This document shows, piece by piece, positions 22,549 through 40,923 of a stretch of 64,000 bases of DNA (the first letter of the stretch is position 1; each line of letters begins with the position of its first letter). The translations under genes and the position numbers were made by a program. The stretch is from Escherichia coli. Its GTDB lineage: Bacteria; Pseudomonadota; Gammaproteobacteria; Enterobacterales; Enterobacteriaceae. Under the pieces are notes generated by a model. That model ran no database searches. It saw nothing but the letters and a program-made list of their open reading frames with translations, and was not told the DNA's origin. Location: NCBI RefSeq assembly GCF_044647545.1, contig NZ_CP172818.1. One strand, 5' to 3'.

Positions 22549-22821
22549 TTATTTGATATAAGAATCCAGCACCTTCAGAACGACATCCAGATCTTCTTCA
22601 CGTTTTAGCTCATCCCCCTGGTGAACGATGTGTTCCGTCAGATGGCCTTTAATCACTTCCCGCATCAGACCGTTTACCGCGCCACGGATAGCAGCAATCT
22701 GTTGTAAAACTGCAGCGCATTCGTGCGGCTCGTCGAGCATTTTCTTGAGCGCCACGACCTGGCCCTGAATCTTACTGGCACGCGCTTTCAGTTTCTGTTT
22801 ATCACGGATGGTATGAGACAT
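22549..22821 (-). CDS. rcnR: Ni/Co-responsive repressor RcnR (CsoR/RcnR family)
   Basis: 90 aa; divergent from rcnA; recognised RcnR. Confidence 0.92.
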
Positions 22822-22869: not shown

Positions 22870-22904
22870 TACTGGGGGGTAGTATCAGGTACTGGGGGGG
22901 AGTA
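22870..22904. promoter_or_regulatory. Two RcnR operator sites (TACT-G6/7-N-AGTA) in rcnR-rcnA divergent promoter region
   Basis: Direct reading: TACTGGGGGGTAGTA (22870-22884) and TACTGGGGGGGAGTA (22890-22904), matching the remembered RcnR G-tract operator pattern. Confidence 0.8.
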
Positions 22905-22941: not shown

Positions 22942-23745
22942 ATGACCGAATTTACCACTCTTCTTCAGCAAGGAAATGCCTGGTTCTTCATCCCCAGCGC
23001 CATCTTACTTGGTGCGCTTCATGGCCTGGAACCAGGGCACTCAAAAACGATGATGGCGGCGTTTATCATCGCCATCAAAGGCACCATTAAACAGGCGGTG
23101 ATGCTCGGACTGGCAGCAACCATTTCGCATACCGCGGTGGTCTGGTTGATTGCCTTTGGCGGGATGGTAATCAGCAAACGTTTTACTGCTCAATCTGCAG
23201 AACCGTGGCTCCAGTTGATTTCCGCGGTGATCATTATTGGCACCGCGTTCTGGATGTTCTGGCGTACCTGGCGCGGCGAACGCAACTGGCTGGAGAATAT
23301 GCACGAGCACGAGCACGAGCACGAGCATGATCATGAGCATCATCACCATCACGAACATGGCGAGTATCAGGATGCCCATGCACGAGCCCATTCCAATGAC
23401 ATTAAAAGACGATTTGATGGTAGAGAGGTCACCAACTGGCAAATTTTGTTATTTGGCTTAACCGGTGGCCTTATCCCCTGCCCGGCAGCAATTACCGTGC
23501 TGTTGATTTGCATTCAGTTGAAAGCCCTGACACTGGGCGCAACACTGGTCGTCAGTTTTAGCATTGGCCTGGCGTTAACGCTTGTCACCGTAGGCGTTGG
23601 CGCAGCAATCAGCGTTCAGCAGGTCGCAAAACGCTGGAGCGGATTTAACACTCTCGCTAAACGCGCCCCCTATTTTTCCAGTCTGTTGATTGGCTTAGTT
23701 GGTGTGTATATGGGCGTACATGGCTTCATGGGCATAATGCGATAA
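22942..23745 (+). CDS. rcnA: Nickel/cobalt efflux protein RcnA with His-rich cytoplasmic loop
   Basis: 267 aa; TM helices plus HEHEHEHEHDHEHHHHHEH loop encoded by hexanucleotide repeat. Confidence 0.92.
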   Translation: MTEFTTLLQQGNAWFFIPSAILLGALHGLEPGHSKTMMAAFIIAIKGTIKQAVMLGLAATISHTAVVWLIAFGGMVISKRFTAQSAEPWLQLISAVIIIGTAFWMFWRTWRGERNWLENMHEHEHEHEHDHEHHHHHEHGEYQDAHARAHSNDIKRRFDGREVTNWQILLFGLTGGLIPCPAAITVLLICIQLKALTLGATLVVSFSIGLALTLVTVGVGAAISVQQVAKRWSGFNTLAKRAPYFSSLLIGLVGVYMGVHGFMGIMR

Positions 23746-23963: not shown

Positions 23964-24302
23964 ATGACCATTAAAAATAAGATGTTGCTGGGTGCGCTTT
24001 TGCTGGTTACCAGTGCCGCCTGGGCCGCACCAGCCACCGCGGGTTCGACCAATACCTCGGGAATTTCTAAGTATGAGTTAAGCAGTTTCATTGCTGACTT
24101 TAAGCATTTCAAACCAGGCGATACCGTCCCAGAGATGTACCGCACCGATGAGTACAACATTAAGCAGTGGCAGTTACGTAACCTGCCCGCGCCTGATGCC
24201 GGGACGCACTGGACCTATATGGGTGGCGCGTACGTGTTGATCAGCGACACCGACGGTAAAATCATTAAAGCCTACGACGGTGAGATTTTTTATCATCGCT
24301 AA
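23964..24302 (+). CDS. rcnB: Periplasmic Ni/Co homeostasis protein RcnB (YohN)
   Basis: 112 aa from MTIKNKMLLGALLLVTSAAWA (signal peptide); ORF-track start at 23784 over-extended. Confidence 0.85.
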   Translation: MTIKNKMLLGALLLVTSAAWAAPATAGSTNTSGISKYELSSFIADFKHFKPGDTVPEMYRTDEYNIKQWQLRNLPAPDAGTHWTYMGGAYVLISDTDGKIIKAYDGEIFYHR

Positions 24303-24383: not shown

Positions 24384-25418
24384 TTAGTCGTATTTCACGT
24401 TGATTAATGCGGTTGCCTCCAGTGCGCCAGATTTAACTTTGTTTGTATCGTAGACGTAGTAACTGGCTGTTATCGGAATTGAAACCGTTGTATCTGTAAG
24501 TTTTGACTTCGCCGCAACTTCCTTTAAATTTGTATATCCTTTACTGCTGTTAGTGATATTTAAAAGTGTGACTGGCGAACCATTACTTTCAAGAATAAAT
24601 CCTACGCCATTATCTTCCGCACCTTTCAGTATTGTGTTGCTGTTGGTTAACAAGTCAGAACTTGATAAATACACCTGCATTTTCCGTGATGTTTGATTTT
24701 GTTGACCTAATAAATTTTTACAACGCAGAATAATATCCCCTTGTTTACTATTTATTGTTGCTTTGTTACCTGTGGCTGGTAATTGTGAAACGGGAATACT
24801 GTCTAAAGTAATTAATAAATCGTCCGGTTTGCAGGTTGTGGTTATCGGGTTGTATGACAATGTCAGATTAAAGGAATAGACACCTGCATTTTGTGCCAAT
24901 GCATTTCTGTAGCTATTTACACATGCATCCCATGACTTGCCACCTAATAAACACAGTAGAAATTGTACTGCGGCACTCCCGCGTGTCGATGATGAAGCAC
25001 TGGATAATGTCGCAACACCATTAATCATCACTGAACCGCCGCCCCCCGCAGAAACATTCACTTTTGCATTACTGGCCGCAGGTGTCACCGTAACTGAATA
25101 ACCACTGGTGAAACTGGTCTGATTATTTGACAACGTGATGTTGTTTTTATTGGTCCATTCAAAATGTAAATTTAATTTTATGGTATCGTTATAAAGTCCA
25201 ACAATAATATCCGACGGGCTCATAGGGGTGATAGTATTTGTACTTACGCATGACGAATCATTAAAATTATGCTCATATGTCGCCATTTGTGTTTGAGTAA
25301 GTGCAAAATCCCCCTGAACAACCAAGTTGTGCTGAACAGATAACTCACTATAACATGCCGCATAGCTCACAGGCATAACCATCATCATTAATATAAATAG
25401 CATTATGCGAATTTCCAT
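24384..25418 (-). CDS. yehA: Fimbrial adhesin-like protein YehA (chaperone-usher pathway)
   Basis: 344 aa; signal peptide; last gene of yehDCBA. Confidence 0.85.
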   Translation of the reverse strand: MEIRIMLFILMMMVMPVSYAACYSELSVQHNLVVQGDFALTQTQMATYEHNFNDSSCVSTNTITPMSPSDIIVGLYNDTIKLNLHFEWTNKNNITLSNNQTSFTSGYSVTVTPAASNAKVNVSAGGGGSVMINGVATLSSASSSTRGSAAVQFLLCLLGGKSWDACVNSYRNALAQNAGVYSFNLTLSYNPITTTCKPDDLLITLDSIPVSQLPATGNKATINSKQGDIILRCKNLLGQQNQTSRKMQVYLSSSDLLTNSNTILKGAEDNGVGFILESNGSPVTLLNITNSSKGYTNLKEVAAKSKLTDTTVSIPITASYYVYDTNKVKSGALEATALINVKYD

Positions 25419-25433
25419 AGAACCACCTGACTA

Positions 25434-27928
25434 TTACTGGCAAATATAATTTCTACTTTCATCAATCTCTTTACCGAAGGTGATTGTGCATGAAAGTCCT
25501 TGTTGCTTATCAATTGCTACATTAACCGATGGCGGTACTTCATTGGTGCGAATAAATAACTGGCTTCCCTGGCCGACAACACCAATATTATGACCATGGA
25601 TATCATTGACTTCATAACCAAACGTTAATGGTTGCCCATCCGCTCTTAACGCTTTTATAAACCATGGCTTGCGCTGATCGGTATCAAAATTAACCAGTAC
25701 AACCGCGCCGCGATAAGGGGCGGCAATTTTCCGGTTGCCACGTAATTCTGCTTCGCTATCGCTTTGCGACACATCCAGCATCAGGTGATTTTCCCGATAA
25801 GGTGTCATTCCGTCGTATACCACCACTCCATTACGGTTTGTTGTGCGATATTTTTGCCCATTGACATAAGCATCTTTAATTCCTGGCGCATTCATTACAG
25901 CAAACGTTTCGGAAAGACGGTTCGCCAGATTAACGCCACCCGACCAGGCGACAATGCCCCCTGAAACACTGGCTCCAGCCTGTCGATAAGTACTCGACTG
26001 ACTATAACTGCCATTCACCGTTGCCACCGGCGCGTTCCAGGTTAAATTAGCTCCAGCTGTCGTTTCATTTCCCTGATGCTGATGACTCAGGTTGACCCCA
26101 TAGTTAAATTGATCCCGGCTTCCAACGGTTCCCGATAATCCCGTATTATTTGAGGCAAAACCCTGATCATCAAACGTCGTTGAGTTAGACATATATATTT
26201 GCCGACGAGGCGTCGTAGCGTCATCACCCCAATCAAAGGGAATCGATATAAAAATATTAAAACGTTTCTCTTCATGATGATTCTCGTCATAAGCCTGGCT
26301 TGCCGCGAGGGTATAGCTTATCCGTCGCAGGTTGTTGGAATAACTCAACTGATAATCCTTACTGCTGCCGCTACGCCCCCAGTAATCTCGCCATAACGTA
26401 CTTAAGGACACAGAACCCCAGCCTTCTGGCAATGACTGGCTCATATTGGCAGAAAAGCTATTTTTACGGCCAAAATCGTTCTGGTAATAATCGGCAATGT
26501 CATAGATATCGTTTTCATCACGGCGATATTTATCTTTATTGTTTGCCCAAACGTGATCGTTAAATGTCCGGTAATCACGCGACGAATAACGCCAGGCCGC
26601 CAGACCAAAACGCGTCGACGTTTGGCTCACAAATTTGTTGTAGGCAATTTGATAACTTTGCCCGTCAAACACATCGCCGTTGTCTTGTTTACTATGCGAC
26701 TTCGTGGCATCGACGGAAATGGCACCAATGCGTGTATTCCAGCCAGTCCCCAAAGTGAACGCGTAATAATTATTCGCGACCATCGATCCGCCATACAGCG
26801 TCAATAAGTTATTAAAACCATACTGATAACCCGCCTGAACAAAATCACTTTGTTTGCTCGCCCCTTCAATATGGCTACGACCTGCCGCAAAATCATATTT
26901 CGACACGCCGGGTTGCAGCATATTCGGCACCGCTGCATAAGGCACCAGATAGGTGGTTACCGAACCGTCCGCCTCTTTCACGCTGACATCAAGATCTGCT
27001 CCACCACCGGCCAACTGCAAATCTGTAATCGCAAACGGGCCAGGAGGAACCTCTTTCTGATAAACCACAAAACCGTTCTGTTCAATAGTTACCAGCGCGT
27101 TACTCTGAGCAATCCCCTGCACCCGTGGAGTAAAATTTTGTTTCGAGTTAGGCAACATCTGCATATCACGAAACAACCGCACACCGCTGAAGCGAACAGA
27201 ATCAAAAATATCGCTTGATGTGTACATATCACCCACGCGAAGCGTGCCGAGAAGTTGGGCAAATCCACGTTCCAGATACAGGGTATTGCTTTTCCACACC
27301 CCTGGATTGCTATTTGTTTTACTGAAACTGGCATCAGAATGCAGTTGCCACCCCAGTAAGTTTAACCCGCTGTTAAAACGTACATATGTACTCTTGCTAT
27401 TACCCGACGCTTTATAGTCGCTGTAATACTGACTCACATAATAAGAGGTATAAAACGCATTAATACCCCGCTCCCAGTTTTCCGGTGGAACATAGCCACT
27501 TTCCAGTTCTTCCACCCACGCCTGCGGGACACTGAAATCGAGACGAAAAACTCCGATATCCCAGGTATAGCTCCCCCCTGAACAAGTTGCTCAAATGTTA
27601 AACATTGCTTACCGCTGGCAAAGTTATCGGTATTAATGCCTAACCGCTTGATAATTTCCCTTGATATACATGTTTCTTGCAGGTTGTCTTTAACAATAAT
27701 CTCATATTTCCCGCGCCATTGCTTATTGACATAAATATCGATGTCATACTGCCCCGGCAAGGGTTGATTATCATCAAGACGAATATTTGCAACCTGCTGG
27801 TCTTTCATTCCACCTATCATAAAATGGGTATCAAAGGTTTCTTCAGCTGCATAAGCTTCAATGCCGAGCAATAACGCTACGATTGCTGATGCAAGTGGGG
27901 TCATTCTCAACATAGGCAGCTCCTGCAA
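25434..27928 (-). pseudogene. yehB: Outer-membrane fimbrial usher YehB, disrupted by a single-base frameshift in a homopolymer (or sequencing error)
   Basis: Two ORFs in different frames (27434..27928 N-terminal fragment, 25434..27515 remainder); frame switches at C6 run 27573-27578 (minus-strand G6); restoring one G gives continuous ...FEQLVQGG-SYTWDIGVFRLDFSVPQAWVEELESGY... Confidence 0.8.
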
Positions 27929-37278: not shown

Positions 37279-40200
37279 ATGGACAAGGAATTACCGTGGC
37301 TGGCGGATAACGCCCAACTGGAACTGAAATATAAAAAAGGCAAAACACCACTCAGCCATCGCAATTGGCCGGGCGAACCGGTGCCTGTTATCACTGAAAA
37401 CCTCATCCAGACACTGGGTGATAAATTGCTACACATTGCTGAGAAGAAAAAAAACATTGTCTGGCGTTATGAAAATTTTTCACTGGAATGGCAGTCCGCC
37501 ATCACGCAGGCCATCAACTTGATCGGCGAGCACAAACCCTCAATTCCGGCCCGGACAATGGCGGCGCTAGCCTGTATCGCGCAAAATGATAGCCAACAGT
37601 TACTCGACGAAATCGTCCAACAAGAGGGACTGGAATATGCGACTGAAGTGGTGATTGCACGCCAGTTTATTGTACGGTGTTATGAGAGTGATCCTCTGGT
37701 AGTAACATTGCAGTATCAGAAGGAGGACTATGGCTATGGCTATGGCTATGGTTATCGCTCAGAAACCTATAACGAATTCGATCTCCGACTGCGTAAGCAT
37801 CTCTCTCTGGCAGAGGAAAGCTGCTGGCAGCGTTGCGCCGACAAACTCATTGCCGCACTGCCAGGACTACCCCAAGTTCGCCGTCCTTTTATTGCACTCA
37901 TCCTCCCGGAAAAACCAGAAATCGCCAATGAGTTGGTAGGCCTTGAATGCCCGTGGACTCATTTTCATTCTAAGGAGTGGTTAAAAGTTGTTGCTACTGA
38001 CCACAGGGCAGTGGGAAAACTCGAACGCTACTGGAGCCAGGATATATTTAGCGATCGCGAAGCCAGCTACATGTCGCATGAAAACCACTTCGGCTACGCG
38101 GCCTGCGCCGCCCTTTTGCGCGAACAAGGAATTGCAGCCGTTCCACGCCTCGCGATGTATGCCCATAAAGAAGATTGCGGTAGCCTGCTGGTAAAAATTA
38201 ACCATCCGCAGGTCATCCGCACCCTGCTGTTAGTTGCTGATAAAAACAAACCCAGCCTGCAACGTGTGGCTAAATACAGTAAAAACTTCCCCCATGCGAC
38301 GCTTGCCGCACTGGCAGAGCTTCTGGCGTTAAAAGAACCGCCTGCACGCCCTGGTTATCCAATCATCGAAGACAAAAAGCTGCCTGCACAGCAAAAAGCT
38401 CGAGATGAATACTGGCGTACGCTGTTACAAACGCTGATGGCATCGCAGCCACAACTGGCAGAAGAGGTGATGCCGTGGTTAAGTACTCAAGCCCAGGCAG
38501 TGCTGGATAGTTATTTATCGGCACCGCCCAAAACGGTTATTGATAGCACCGATAACATCCAAATGCCTGAAATCCTCGTTTCACCACCGTGGCGTAGTAA
38601 GAAAAAAATGACAGTTCCACGTCTTGATTTGGCACCGTTCGAATTAACGCCGCAAGTTTACTGGCAACCAGGCGAACGAGAGAGGCTTGCCGCCACTGAG
38701 TCTGCCCGTTATTTCAGCACGGAATCTCTTGCGGAACGCATGGAACAAAAAAGTGGACGAGTTGTATTACAGGAGCTGGGTTTTGGAGATGATGTATGGC
38801 TGTTTTTGAATTATATACTCCCCGGAAAACTGGATGCTGCACGCAATTCACTCATTGTTCAGTGGCATTACTACCCAGGGCGGGTTGAAGAGATCATGAA
38901 TGGCTGGAGCTCCCCGGAAGCTCAATTAGCAGAACAGGCGCTTCGCAACGGTCACGTAGAAGTGTTAATTAACATATGGGAAAATGACAGCTACTCACGC
39001 TATCGTCGGGAAAAGAGTATCTGGAACCTGTATTTATTGGCGCAGTTGCCGCGTGAGATGGCTTTGACTTTCTGGCTACGTATCAATGAGAAAAAGCATC
39101 TGTCTGCGGGAGAGGACTATTTTCTCAGTATCTTCGGATTGGATGCTCTACCAGGTCTGCTGTTGGCTTTTTCACATCGTCCAAAAGAAACATTTCCATT
39201 AATTTTAAATTTCGGCGCAACAGAACTGGCCCTGCCCGTTGCCCGCGTCTGGCGACGTTTCGCGGCGCAGCGTGATCTGGCTCGCCAGTGGATTTTACAT
39301 TGGTCGGAACATACAGCTACTGCACTTATCCCTCTTGTCTTCACCAAATCCAGCGATAATAGCGAAGCTGCATTACTTGCCCTGCGTTTACTTTACGAAC
39401 AGGGACATGGCGAGTTACTGCAAACCGTGGCAAACCGCTGGCAGCGTACAGATGTATGGCCTGCCCTGGAGCAATTACTTAAACAGAGTCCAATAGAGAT
39501 TTACCCGACACGCATTCCAAAAGCCCCTGATTTCTGGCAGCCGGCAATGTGGTCCAGACCGAGACTTATCACGAATAATCAACCTGTTACTGATGATGCT
39601 CTGGAAATTATCGGCGAAATGCTGCGCTTTACCCAGGGCGGACGTTTTTATTGTGGGCTGGAACAACTGAAAACGTTCTGCCAGCCACAAACGCTGGCCG
39701 CTTTTGCCTGGGATCTCTTTACCGCGTGGCAACAAGTTGGCGCCCCCGCAAAAGACAACTGGGCATTTCTGGCGTTAAGTCTCTTCGGTGACGAAAGCAC
39801 GGCTCGGGATCTGACAACACAGATCCTCGCCTGGCCACAGGAAGGCAAATCTGCCCGTGCCGTCAGTGGCCTGAACATACTTACCCTGATGAATAATGAT
39901 ATGGCGCTGATACAGCTGCATCATATATCGCAACGGGCGAAATCCCGTCCCTTACGTGATAACGCGGCGGAATTTCTTCAGGTGGTCGCAGAAAATCGTG
40001 GACTAAGCCAGGAAGAGTTAGCGGACAGATTAGTCCCAACACTGGGCCTGGATGATCCGCAGGCGTTGATATTTGATTTTGGTCCCCGGCAGTTTACCGT
40101 TCGCTTCGATGAAAACCTCAACCCGGTTATCTTTGATCAGCAAAACGTTCGCCAGAAAAGCATTCCCCGGTTGCGCGCCGATGACGATCAGCTGAAAGCG

Positions 40201-40923
40201 CCCGAGGCTCTGGCCCGACTTAAAGGGCTAAAAAAAGATGCCACTCAGGTGAGCAAAAACCTGCTCCCGCGTCTTGAAACAGCCCTACGCACCACCCGAC
40301 GCTGGTCGCTGGCAGATTTTCATTCTCTGTTTGTTAATCATCCCTTTACCCGTCTGGTTACCCAGCGATTAATATGGGCGGTTTATCCAGCAAATGAACC
40401 GCGTCGTTTACTCAACGCCTTTCGTGTGGCCGCAGAGGGGGAATTCTGCAACGCACAAGATGAGCCAATTGACCTGCCTGCCGATGCCCTGATTGGCATT
40501 GCCCACCCGTTAGAAATGACAGCAGAAATGCGCAGTGAATTTGCACAGCTTTTTGCCGATTACGAAATTATGCCGCCTTTTCGCCAGTTGACGCGGCGCA
40601 CAGTGCTGCTCACGCCTGACGAGTCAGCCAGTAATAGTTTGAATCGCTGGGAAGGTAAATCTGCTACCGTTGGGCAACTTATGGGAATGCGATACAAAGG
40701 CTGGGAGTCAGGCTATGAGAACGCATTTGTCTATGACCTGGGCGAGTACCGGCTGGTCCTTAAGTTTTCATCCGGTTTTAACCACTACAATGTTGATAGC
40801 AAAGCGCTAATGAGCTTCCGTTCTCTTCATGTATACCGTGACAATAAATCTGTCACTTTTGCCGAACTTGATGTGTTTGATTTGAGTGAAGCGTTAAGCG
40901 CACCCGACGTCATTTTCCATTAA
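37279..40923 (+). CDS. yehI: Giant DUF4132 protein YehI, tandem paralog of MolR lacking the WGR domain
   Basis: 1214 aa; long collinear similarity to MolR (DLRLRKHLSLAEES.WQ.CA.KLIAA.P ... FPHA.LAALAELL ... FGPRQFTV.FDE); internal GYGYGYGY repeat. Confidence 0.85.
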   Translation: MDKELPWLADNAQLELKYKKGKTPLSHRNWPGEPVPVITENLIQTLGDKLLHIAEKKKNIVWRYENFSLEWQSAITQAINLIGEHKPSIPARTMAALACIAQNDSQQLLDEIVQQEGLEYATEVVIARQFIVRCYESDPLVVTLQYQKEDYGYGYGYGYRSETYNEFDLRLRKHLSLAEESCWQRCADKLIAALPGLPQVRRPFIALILPEKPEIANELVGLECPWTHFHSKEWLKVVATDHRAVGKLERYWSQDIFSDREASYMSHENHFGYAACAALLREQGIAAVPRLAMYAHKEDCGSLLVKINHPQVIRTLLLVADKNKPSLQRVAKYSKNFPHATLAALAELLALKEPPARPGYPIIEDKKLPAQQKARDEYWRTLLQTLMASQPQLAEEVMPWLSTQAQAVLDSYLSAPPKTVIDSTDNIQMPEILVSPPWRSKKKMTVPRLDLAPFELTPQVYWQPGERERLAATESARYFSTESLAERMEQKSGRVVLQELGFGDDVWLFLNYILPGKLDAARNSLIVQWHYYPGRVEEIMNGWSSPEAQLAEQALRNGHVEVLINIWENDSYSRYRREKSIWNLYLLAQLPREMALTFWLRINEKKHLSAGEDYFLSIFGLDALPGLLLAFSHRPKETFPLILNFGATELALPVARVWRRFAAQRDLARQWILHWSEHTATALIPLVFTKSSDNSEAALLALRLLYEQGHGELLQTVANRWQRTDVWPALEQLLKQSPIEIYPTRIPKAPDFWQPAMWSRPRLITNNQPVTDDALEIIGEMLRFTQGGRFYCGLEQLKTFCQPQTLAAFAWDLFTAWQQVGAPAKDNWAFLALSLFGDESTARDLTTQILAWPQEGKSARAVSGLNILTLMNNDMALIQLHHISQRAKSRPLRDNAAEFLQVVAENRGLSQEELADRLVPTLGLDDPQALIFDFGPRQFTVRFDENLNPVIFDQQNVRQKSIPRLRADDDQLKAPEALARLKGLKKDATQVSKNLLPRLETALRTTRRWSLADFHSLFVNHPFTRLVTQRLIWAVYPANEPRRLLNAFRVAAEGEFCNAQDEPIDLPADALIGIAHPLEMTAEMRSEFAQLFADYEIMPPFRQLTRRTVLLTPDESASNSLNRWEGKSATVGQLMGMRYKGWESGYENAFVYDLGEYRLVLKFSSGFNHYNVDSKALMSFRSLHVYRDNKSVTFAELDVFDLSEALSAPDVIFH

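Follow-up and report, generated by a model that had tools for sequence, protein, structure and literature searches.

Among the tandem repeats described in rcnA (yohM), the one closest to the present locus is VNTR-19 of Escherichia coli O157, also named O157-19 or TR7, which has a 6-bp unit and gave five alleles in 15 isolates with a diversity index of 0.65 (PMC3768571). Clades of O157 typically carry 5-7 copies of the unit (PMC10062581). In Salmonella, the locus STTR5 (Sal16) is a CACGAC repeat in yohM/rcnA with 7-26 copies and one of the five standard loci for MLVA of S. Typhimurium; its copy number was seen to change in in-vitro passage, within 50 generations, and a 54-nt deletion corresponding to (HD)9 was found after in-vivo passage (PMC5183578, PMC1781188, PMC3391293, PMC6760104). 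MLVA locus 27 of Klebsiella pneumoniae is likewise a 6-bp repeat within rcnA, present in 0-19 copies (PMC3948817), and in-frame His/Asp insertions have been reported in RcnA of Klebsiella clinical isolates (PMC11445613). The polymorphism of the rcnA loop is already known, and the site has been in use as a VNTR typing locus for about two decades.

Resistance to nickel and cobalt by efflux has been credited to RcnA of E. coli K-12 (Rodrigue et al. 2005, as cited in PMC5183578 and PMC11445613). The central loop of the protein comprises 67 aa with 17 histidines in E. coli and 100-123 aa with 33-53 histidines in cable bacteria (PMC11247825). That the loop affects metal handling has been put forward in print as speculation (PMC3391293, PMC5183578, PMC11445613, PMC11247825). 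Here, we describe a perfect hexanucleotide array in the loop of a 267-aa RcnA from E. coli, reconstruct how this allele is related to the common 274-aa form, and compare the array with the typing loci above.

Results

The window, by which we mean the whole 64-kb stretch of E. coli DNA analysed, contains rcnA at 22942-23745 on the plus strand, encoding a nickel/cobalt efflux protein of 267 aa according to its open reading frame, family profiles and an annotated identical copy. The protein scored 540.1 bits over its full length against NCBIfam NF007454 (cut-off 195) and 226.1 bits against Pfam PF03824, NicO (cut-off 27.7), exceeding the curated cut-offs for membership in the RcnA / NicO family, and DNA 100% identical to the gene is annotated as rcnA (WP_022645861.1) in strain FDAARGOS_497. 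The neighbourhood shows the rcnR-rcnA-rcnB arrangement. The gene of the Ni/Co-responsive repressor, rcnR, lies divergently at 22549-22821 on the minus strand (NF011613, 197 bits), while rcnB, encoding the periplasmic accessory subunit of the efflux system, is located at 23964-24302 on the plus strand, as annotated in an identical locus. The divergent intergenic region between rcnR and rcnA carries two RcnR operators, TACTGGGGGGTAGTA at 22870-22884 and TACTGGGGGGGAGTA at 22890-22904, both recognized by their match to the published consensus TACT-G6-N-AGTA (PMC7055735); they have the form TACT-G6/7-N-AGTA, with homopolymer tracts of G6 and G7. Judging from the family match, the 267-aa allele is predicted to be a Ni/Co exporter.

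The operator/promoter region of rcnA was invariant in the nine sequences compared, namely the window and eight other alleles. By contrast with these stable G tracts in the operators, the repeat in the coding sequence 400 nt downstream is hypervariable. We found rcnA in 5,365 of 5,426 complete E. coli genomes, leaving 61 genomes with no match. In ZF31 (NZ_CP047455.1), just the first 111 nt of the gene are left beside yehA, a remnant that indicates occasional loss of rcnA.

The repeat region at 23299-23358 reads ATG (CACGAG)x4 CAT GAT CAT GAG CAT CAT CAC CAT CAC GAA CAT and translates into MHEHEHEHEHDHEHHHHHEH. Its copy-number-variable part is the perfect (CACGAG)x4 array at 23302-23325 on the plus strand, four head-to-tail units encoding (His-Glu)x4. 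The array is embedded in the hypervariable core of the His-rich loop, which we delimited by allele comparison as M120-E141 (MHEHEHEHEHDHEHHHHHEHGE, 23299-23364, plus strand) and which holds 12 histidines. A first-pass annotation had assigned the array to the His-rich loop of RcnA, an assignment borne out by the sequence, its translation and both profile scores. Tandem Repeats Finder called the repeat at 23301-23339 with a period of 6, 6.5 copies, 90% matches and a score of 57.

The CACGAG repeat is beyond chance. The window contains two perfect hexamer x4 arrays, whereas 200 random sequences drawn from a first-order Markov model of matching composition contained none. Furthermore, writing HEHEHEHE with four CAC and four GAG codons has a probability of about 3e-4 under the codon usage of the window (CAC 0.43, GAG 0.30). 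Because such uniform codons are improbable by codon usage, the CACGAG units are DNA-level copies of each other rather than independently picked codons. On the minus strand, an antisense ORF of 133 aa at 23041-23442 reads LVLVLVLV opposite the His-Glu codons. We rejected it as a gene, since it most likely arises simply from reading the His/Glu codons of the repeat in reverse complement.

The second perfect hexamer array of the window, (CTATGG)x4 at 37728-37751, lies in yehI (ORF 37279-40923, plus strand), where it is read in the frame TAT GGC and gives YGYGYGYGY in the DUF4132 protein YehI. The corresponding stretch is 281 nt long in the window, but almost all other E. coli have 269 nt, two units fewer; 58 genomes match the stretch of the window at 99% or more and 24 at 95-99%. 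The yehI repeat appears to be expanded in a lineage-specific manner and is possibly variable.

Across 5,363 complete genomes of E. coli, rcnA spans 786-858 nt, the 786-nt allele being that of strain MS16-3. An even-step sample of 60 matches contained spans of 804, 810, 822, 825, 831, 840, 852 and 858 nt, with the K-12 length of 825 nt (274 aa) in 49 of its 59 full-length rows. When eleven alleles were aligned, all indels fell between NWLEN and YQDAHARAH, barring one C-terminal codon absent in CRE78. The comparison of 21 alleles located the variation in the same place: the 5' coding part was always 357 nt long and the 3' part 381 nt in 20 of them, the exception again being CRE78, which lacks one codon at the C-terminal end of this part. 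Among the 21 alleles, we counted 14 different loop sequences in 11 lengths, each divisible by 3, and outside the loop RcnA is 97-99% identical. In the 116 of 120 database cluster representatives where it could be delimited, the loop core was 18-55 aa long. RcnA lengths of 280-306 aa among database clusters, which we had considered as candidates for very long loops, proved to result from alternative calls of the start codon, the loop being an ordinary one of 29 aa.

These comparisons bear on the expectation of the first-pass annotation that the loop would be length-polymorphic. The alignment of alleles across E. coli indeed gave differing loop lengths, with n = 1, 2, 3, 4, 5 and 7 units, and the lengths that it gave, 267 aa for this ORF and 274 aa for K-12, agree with the ORF of the window and the 825-nt K-12 allele. 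The difference between these two maps inside the loop and nowhere else. The polymorphism that had been offered as a prediction is thus real and sits in the loop, but it was already an established typing marker.

Histidines alternating with acidic residues are a common feature of the loop in every allele. The histidine count of the core is 9 for the n=1 allele, 12 for the window, 15 for n=7, 17 for K-12 and 21 for O157 F8797. The major loop classes, which are the K-12 type, the common MHEHDHE type and the O157 type, differ by substitutions together with larger duplications and deletions, and their spread may be due to recombination instead of unit slippage. The locus does not behave as a phase-variable contingency locus, given that the ORF was intact and in frame in 21 of 21 alleles and the promoter/operator region was invariant. 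With a 6-nt unit and no allele breaking the frame, there is no on/off switch by phase variation.

For the copy-number series of the CACGAG array, we used as queries the amplicon of the window (23224-23484) and synthetic versions of it with two or eight units. Identity-band counts from BLAST are approximate, and two-piece alignments skipping the loop can inflate the bands; we relied on one-piece, full-coverage rows and on the bands at 99% or more of allele-specific queries. A single CACGAG unit is present in at least one genome (MS16-3), two units in three genomes (WP4-S18-ESBL-09, 4973 and ChlosBP-23-1), three units in 13 genomes (including CUVET20-PYO4, CE10 and IAI39), four units in about 82 genomes (including strains named ST648, MS6198 and ECONIH1), five units in 40 genomes and seven units in two genomes (AF14 and AF10), while n=6 did not occur among the 60 best-ranked rows. 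Codon prints of the n=1, 2, 3, 4, 5 and 7 alleles differed by whole units alone, the loop being otherwise identical. Altogether, the loop type of the window is found in about 141 genomes, or roughly 2.6%. Genomes with n=4 came from humans, dogs, pigs, poultry, a dolphin and wastewater.

The flanks of several alleles are informative about the age of the changes. WP4-S18-ESBL-09 and 4973 (both n=2) and CUVET20-PYO4 (n=3) show 0-1 SNP relative to the window over 5 kb left of the amplicon and match it completely for 983 nt on the right, so that whole-unit differences occur here between conserved flanks. Such near-identical flanks argue that the changes to n=2 and n=3 were recent and took place within the lineage of the window; slippage predicts them, whereas the import of an allele does not. 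From these alignments, we infer slippage as the mechanism of the unit changes. Since about 82 genomes keep n=4 and a handful have n=2 or n=3, the array would be weakly mutable, unlike the hypermutable STTR5 of Salmonella.

In the n=5 strain 2016C-3878, similarity to the window starts just 845 nt before the amplicon. The thiM-thiD-yegX-yegW segment to the left of the TPP riboswitch by rcnR is replaced in this strain (L018 193-4072) by genes for a tyrosine recombinase/integrase, an HNH endonuclease, a helix-turn-helix protein and a recombinase-family gene, which suggests an integrated element left of the riboswitch.

The difference between 267 and 274 aa had been taken in the first-pass annotation as consistent with variation in repeat number. 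This part of the annotation did not hold, and its suggestion that such variation could tune metal binding is a speculation already in print for Salmonella and Klebsiella (PMC3391293, PMC5183578, PMC11445613). The K-12 loop, MHGHDYEHHHHDHEHHHDHGHHHHHEHGE, is written in mixed codons and contains no CACGAG array, and a difference of 21 nt is not divisible by 6, so it cannot be a change in copy number; a 39-nt deletion together with a gain of three units accounts for it instead. The common 274-aa loop, MHEHDHEHHHHDHEDHHDHGHHHHHEHGE, found in AR_0162 and NGF1, contains two 9-nt direct repeats, CATCATCAC, 39 nt apart. Removing in silico the 39 nt between the CATCATCAC repeats of AR_0162 and NGF1 yielded the loop of MS16-3 base for base, that is, a loop with one CACGAG unit in a protein of 261 aa. 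Adding three CACGAG units to the MS16-3-type loop in turn yielded exactly the loop of the window, in agreement with the arithmetic of the protein lengths (274 - 13 + 6 = 267). The lone copy of CATCATCAC at 23338-23346 on the plus strand marks the junction where these 39 nt of the common 274-aa allele were lost in frame.

We located the VNTR-19 typing site using the primer sequences in Table 2 of PMC8461963. In the window, the forward primer site is at 23224-23259 on the plus strand and the reverse primer site at 23456-23484 on the minus strand, each with three mismatches, and the in-silico amplicon covers 23224-23484 (261 bp). At the O157:H7 rcnA loci (L008-L010), the forward primer matched exactly at 583-618; the reverse primer had one mismatch at 869-897 of L009, from O157:H7 F8797, where the amplicon of 315 bp falls inside the published range of 283-357 (PMC8461963). 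The primers thus bracket a repeat in the O157 loci as well as in the window. The array scored in O157 is a different one: O157 carries (GACCAC)5-6 in the middle of the loop, and the window (CACGAG)4 at the start of the loop. Two O157:H7 strains differ by one GACCAC unit alone. At 99% or more, 133 genomes matched the O157-type (GACCAC)5 amplicon and 64 the (GACCAC)6 amplicon. The generic E. coli MLVA locus CVN014 had also been suspected to be the rcnA site, but its published description gives no gene or sequence and we do not claim identity.

The loop, residues 110-166 of the RcnA encoded in the window, is the sole long hydrophilic segment of the protein and contains seven Lys/Arg. By the positive-inside rule, these seven residues place the central His-rich loop probably in the cytoplasm, and the published prediction agrees (PMC11247825). 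An AlphaFold2 model of RcnA, built from an Escherichia-only alignment of 38 sequences, reached a mean pLDDT of 42.5 and a pTM of 0.20, values too poor to address disorder or topology of the loop. A sequence search of the PDB returned no solved NicO/RcnA structure, the matches being His-rich tails of unrelated proteins.

Another variable site lies near rcnA. A divergent stretch at 24468-25440 lies in a yehA-like fimbrial adhesin gene (24384-25418, minus strand), and 660 of 1035 positions differ between this gene and the WP_022645862.1 allele. The latter allele is present in WP4-S18-ESBL-09, 4973 and CUVET20-PYO4, which have identical or near-identical flanks, and FDAARGOS_497 has it annotated as well. 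Among the complete genomes of the collection, none carried the rcnA and the yehA alleles of the window together at 99% or more over the full length; the highest identity of a full-length match was 98.2%. The adhesin allele looks like one that was replaced by recombination.

Discussion

Our results point to an in-frame (CACGAG)4 microsatellite in the His-rich loop of RcnA that arose by slippage, at a known VNTR locus, in an allele descended from a 274-aa form in two steps, and we would put the probability of this reading at roughly 0.9. A 39-nt deletion between the CATCATCAC direct repeats would first have produced the 261-aa allele with one CACGAG, and the single unit would then have expanded to four, giving 267 aa. 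Replication slippage would have given birth to the array and would still add and remove whole units, each unit bringing one more His and one more Glu into a low-complexity metal-binding loop with the frame kept. In chemical terms, every unit would contribute one imidazole and one carboxylate ligand. We picture the loop as slippage-prone and compositionally constrained, but otherwise loosely constrained, so that its length could drift within a tolerated range, and we infer that unit number is near-neutral within the observed range.

The number of His-X units could instead be under selection as an adaptive tuning knob, by which the binding, buffering or efflux of Ni/Co by RcnA would be adjusted to local metal exposure, making the repeat an evolvability device. 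Several authors have speculated about selection by metals (PMC3391293, PMC11445613), and STTR5 of Salmonella prefers mid-range copy numbers (PMC5183578). Moreover, the loop is the sole hypervariable part of an otherwise conserved protein, His-X hexamer arrays have independent origins in a number of lineages and genera, and the counted alleles range from 9 to 21 histidines. However, the recurrence of arrays requires no selection because low-complexity, CAY-rich DNA is intrinsically slippage-prone, the mid-range bias in Salmonella is also explicable by length-dependent mutation, and n=4 is nearly fixed in the lineage of the window across very different hosts. We consider such tuning unlikely. 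If it were true, the arrays of His-Glu in phylogroup-F-like strains, Asp-His in O157-type strains, His-Asp in Salmonella and yet another in Klebsiella would allow fast adjustment to Ni/Co, and the 12-His allele of the window should have a measurably different metal phenotype from K-12 with 17 and O157 with 21 histidines.

Homologous recombination could have exchanged whole rcnA alleles between lineages, as the obvious allelic replacement in the neighbouring yehA might lead one to expect, and the major loop classes are indeed many substitutions apart and co-vary with flanking SNPs such as G100/S100 and S152/A152. Exchange is nevertheless improbable as the source of the length polymorphism, as the n=2, 3 and 4 alleles lie in flanks that are identical or one SNP apart over 5 kb and differ by whole CACGAG units alone, just as the O157:H7 strains differ by a single GACCAC. 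Selection for HEHEHEHE at the protein level, with no repeat dynamics in the DNA, would fit the widespread His/acidic alternation in the loop of all alleles; it has very little to recommend it when all four units are spelled alike, in CAC and GAG, both minority codons (P of about 3e-4), while neighbouring His codons of the loop mix CAT and CAC, and when a series of unit numbers exists. Some of the records are long-read assemblies, which are able to miscount repeats, but we give almost no credence to sequencing or assembly artefacts as the origin of the copy-number differences: these are all exact multiples of 6 nt, independent assemblies from different countries share the variants (n=2 occurs both in Japan and in the USA, n=3 in 13 genomes and n=5 in 40), and PCR fragment sizing has shown polymorphism at the locus since 2003 (PMC3768571).

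Slippage of CACGAG units after the 39-nt deletion does not cover every length difference in RcnA. Unit slippage, losses between short direct repeats and larger duplications all contribute to the differences between strains, and protein length by itself is for this reason a poor proxy for copy number. As the site is already a standard strain-typing marker, a variable repeat in rcnA is a correct but ordinary finding, and its importance is small beyond bookkeeping, with established markers in E. coli O157, Salmonella and Klebsiella.

The array of the window shares with O157 VNTR-19 the gene, the His-rich loop, the PCR amplicon, a 6-bp in-frame unit and copy numbers that vary between strains. However, the (GACCAC)n array of O157 encodes Asp-His in the middle of a longer loop, whereas (CACGAG)n encodes His-Glu right after Met120; the two arrays are non-homologous, and the loop of the window has lost 39 nt. 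The occurrence of different arrays in one and the same loop implies that His-X hexamer arrays arose there repeatedly. It also follows from the difference between the ST648-like/phylogroup-F-like (CACGAG)n and the array scored in O157 that VNTR-19 sizes of non-O157 strains are not comparable in repeat units. STTR5 of Salmonella resembles the array of the window in being an in-frame hexanucleotide repeat in the orthologous gene and loop, with a unit encoding His-Asp, but it has far more copies and changes on the scale of passages, whereas the four-unit array appears to be stable in its lineage. Locus 27 of K. pneumoniae is likewise a 6-bp repeat in rcnA, albeit in another genus and with a unit reported as CATGGT.

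Cable bacteria present the same family and the same central loop, predicted to be cytoplasmic, with length and His count dependent on the taxon. There, a large expansion is fixed and separates distant taxa, in contrast to the strain-level variation by units described here. Cation-diffusion-facilitator transporters such as plant MTP1 possess a disordered His-rich cytosolic loop between transmembrane helices of a metal exporter, and deletions in such loops reportedly alter transport kinetics or selectivity. We know of no comparable loop-deletion experiment for RcnA. Although they belong to an unrelated family, these transporters offer the best analogy for how a change in the length of the RcnA loop could matter.
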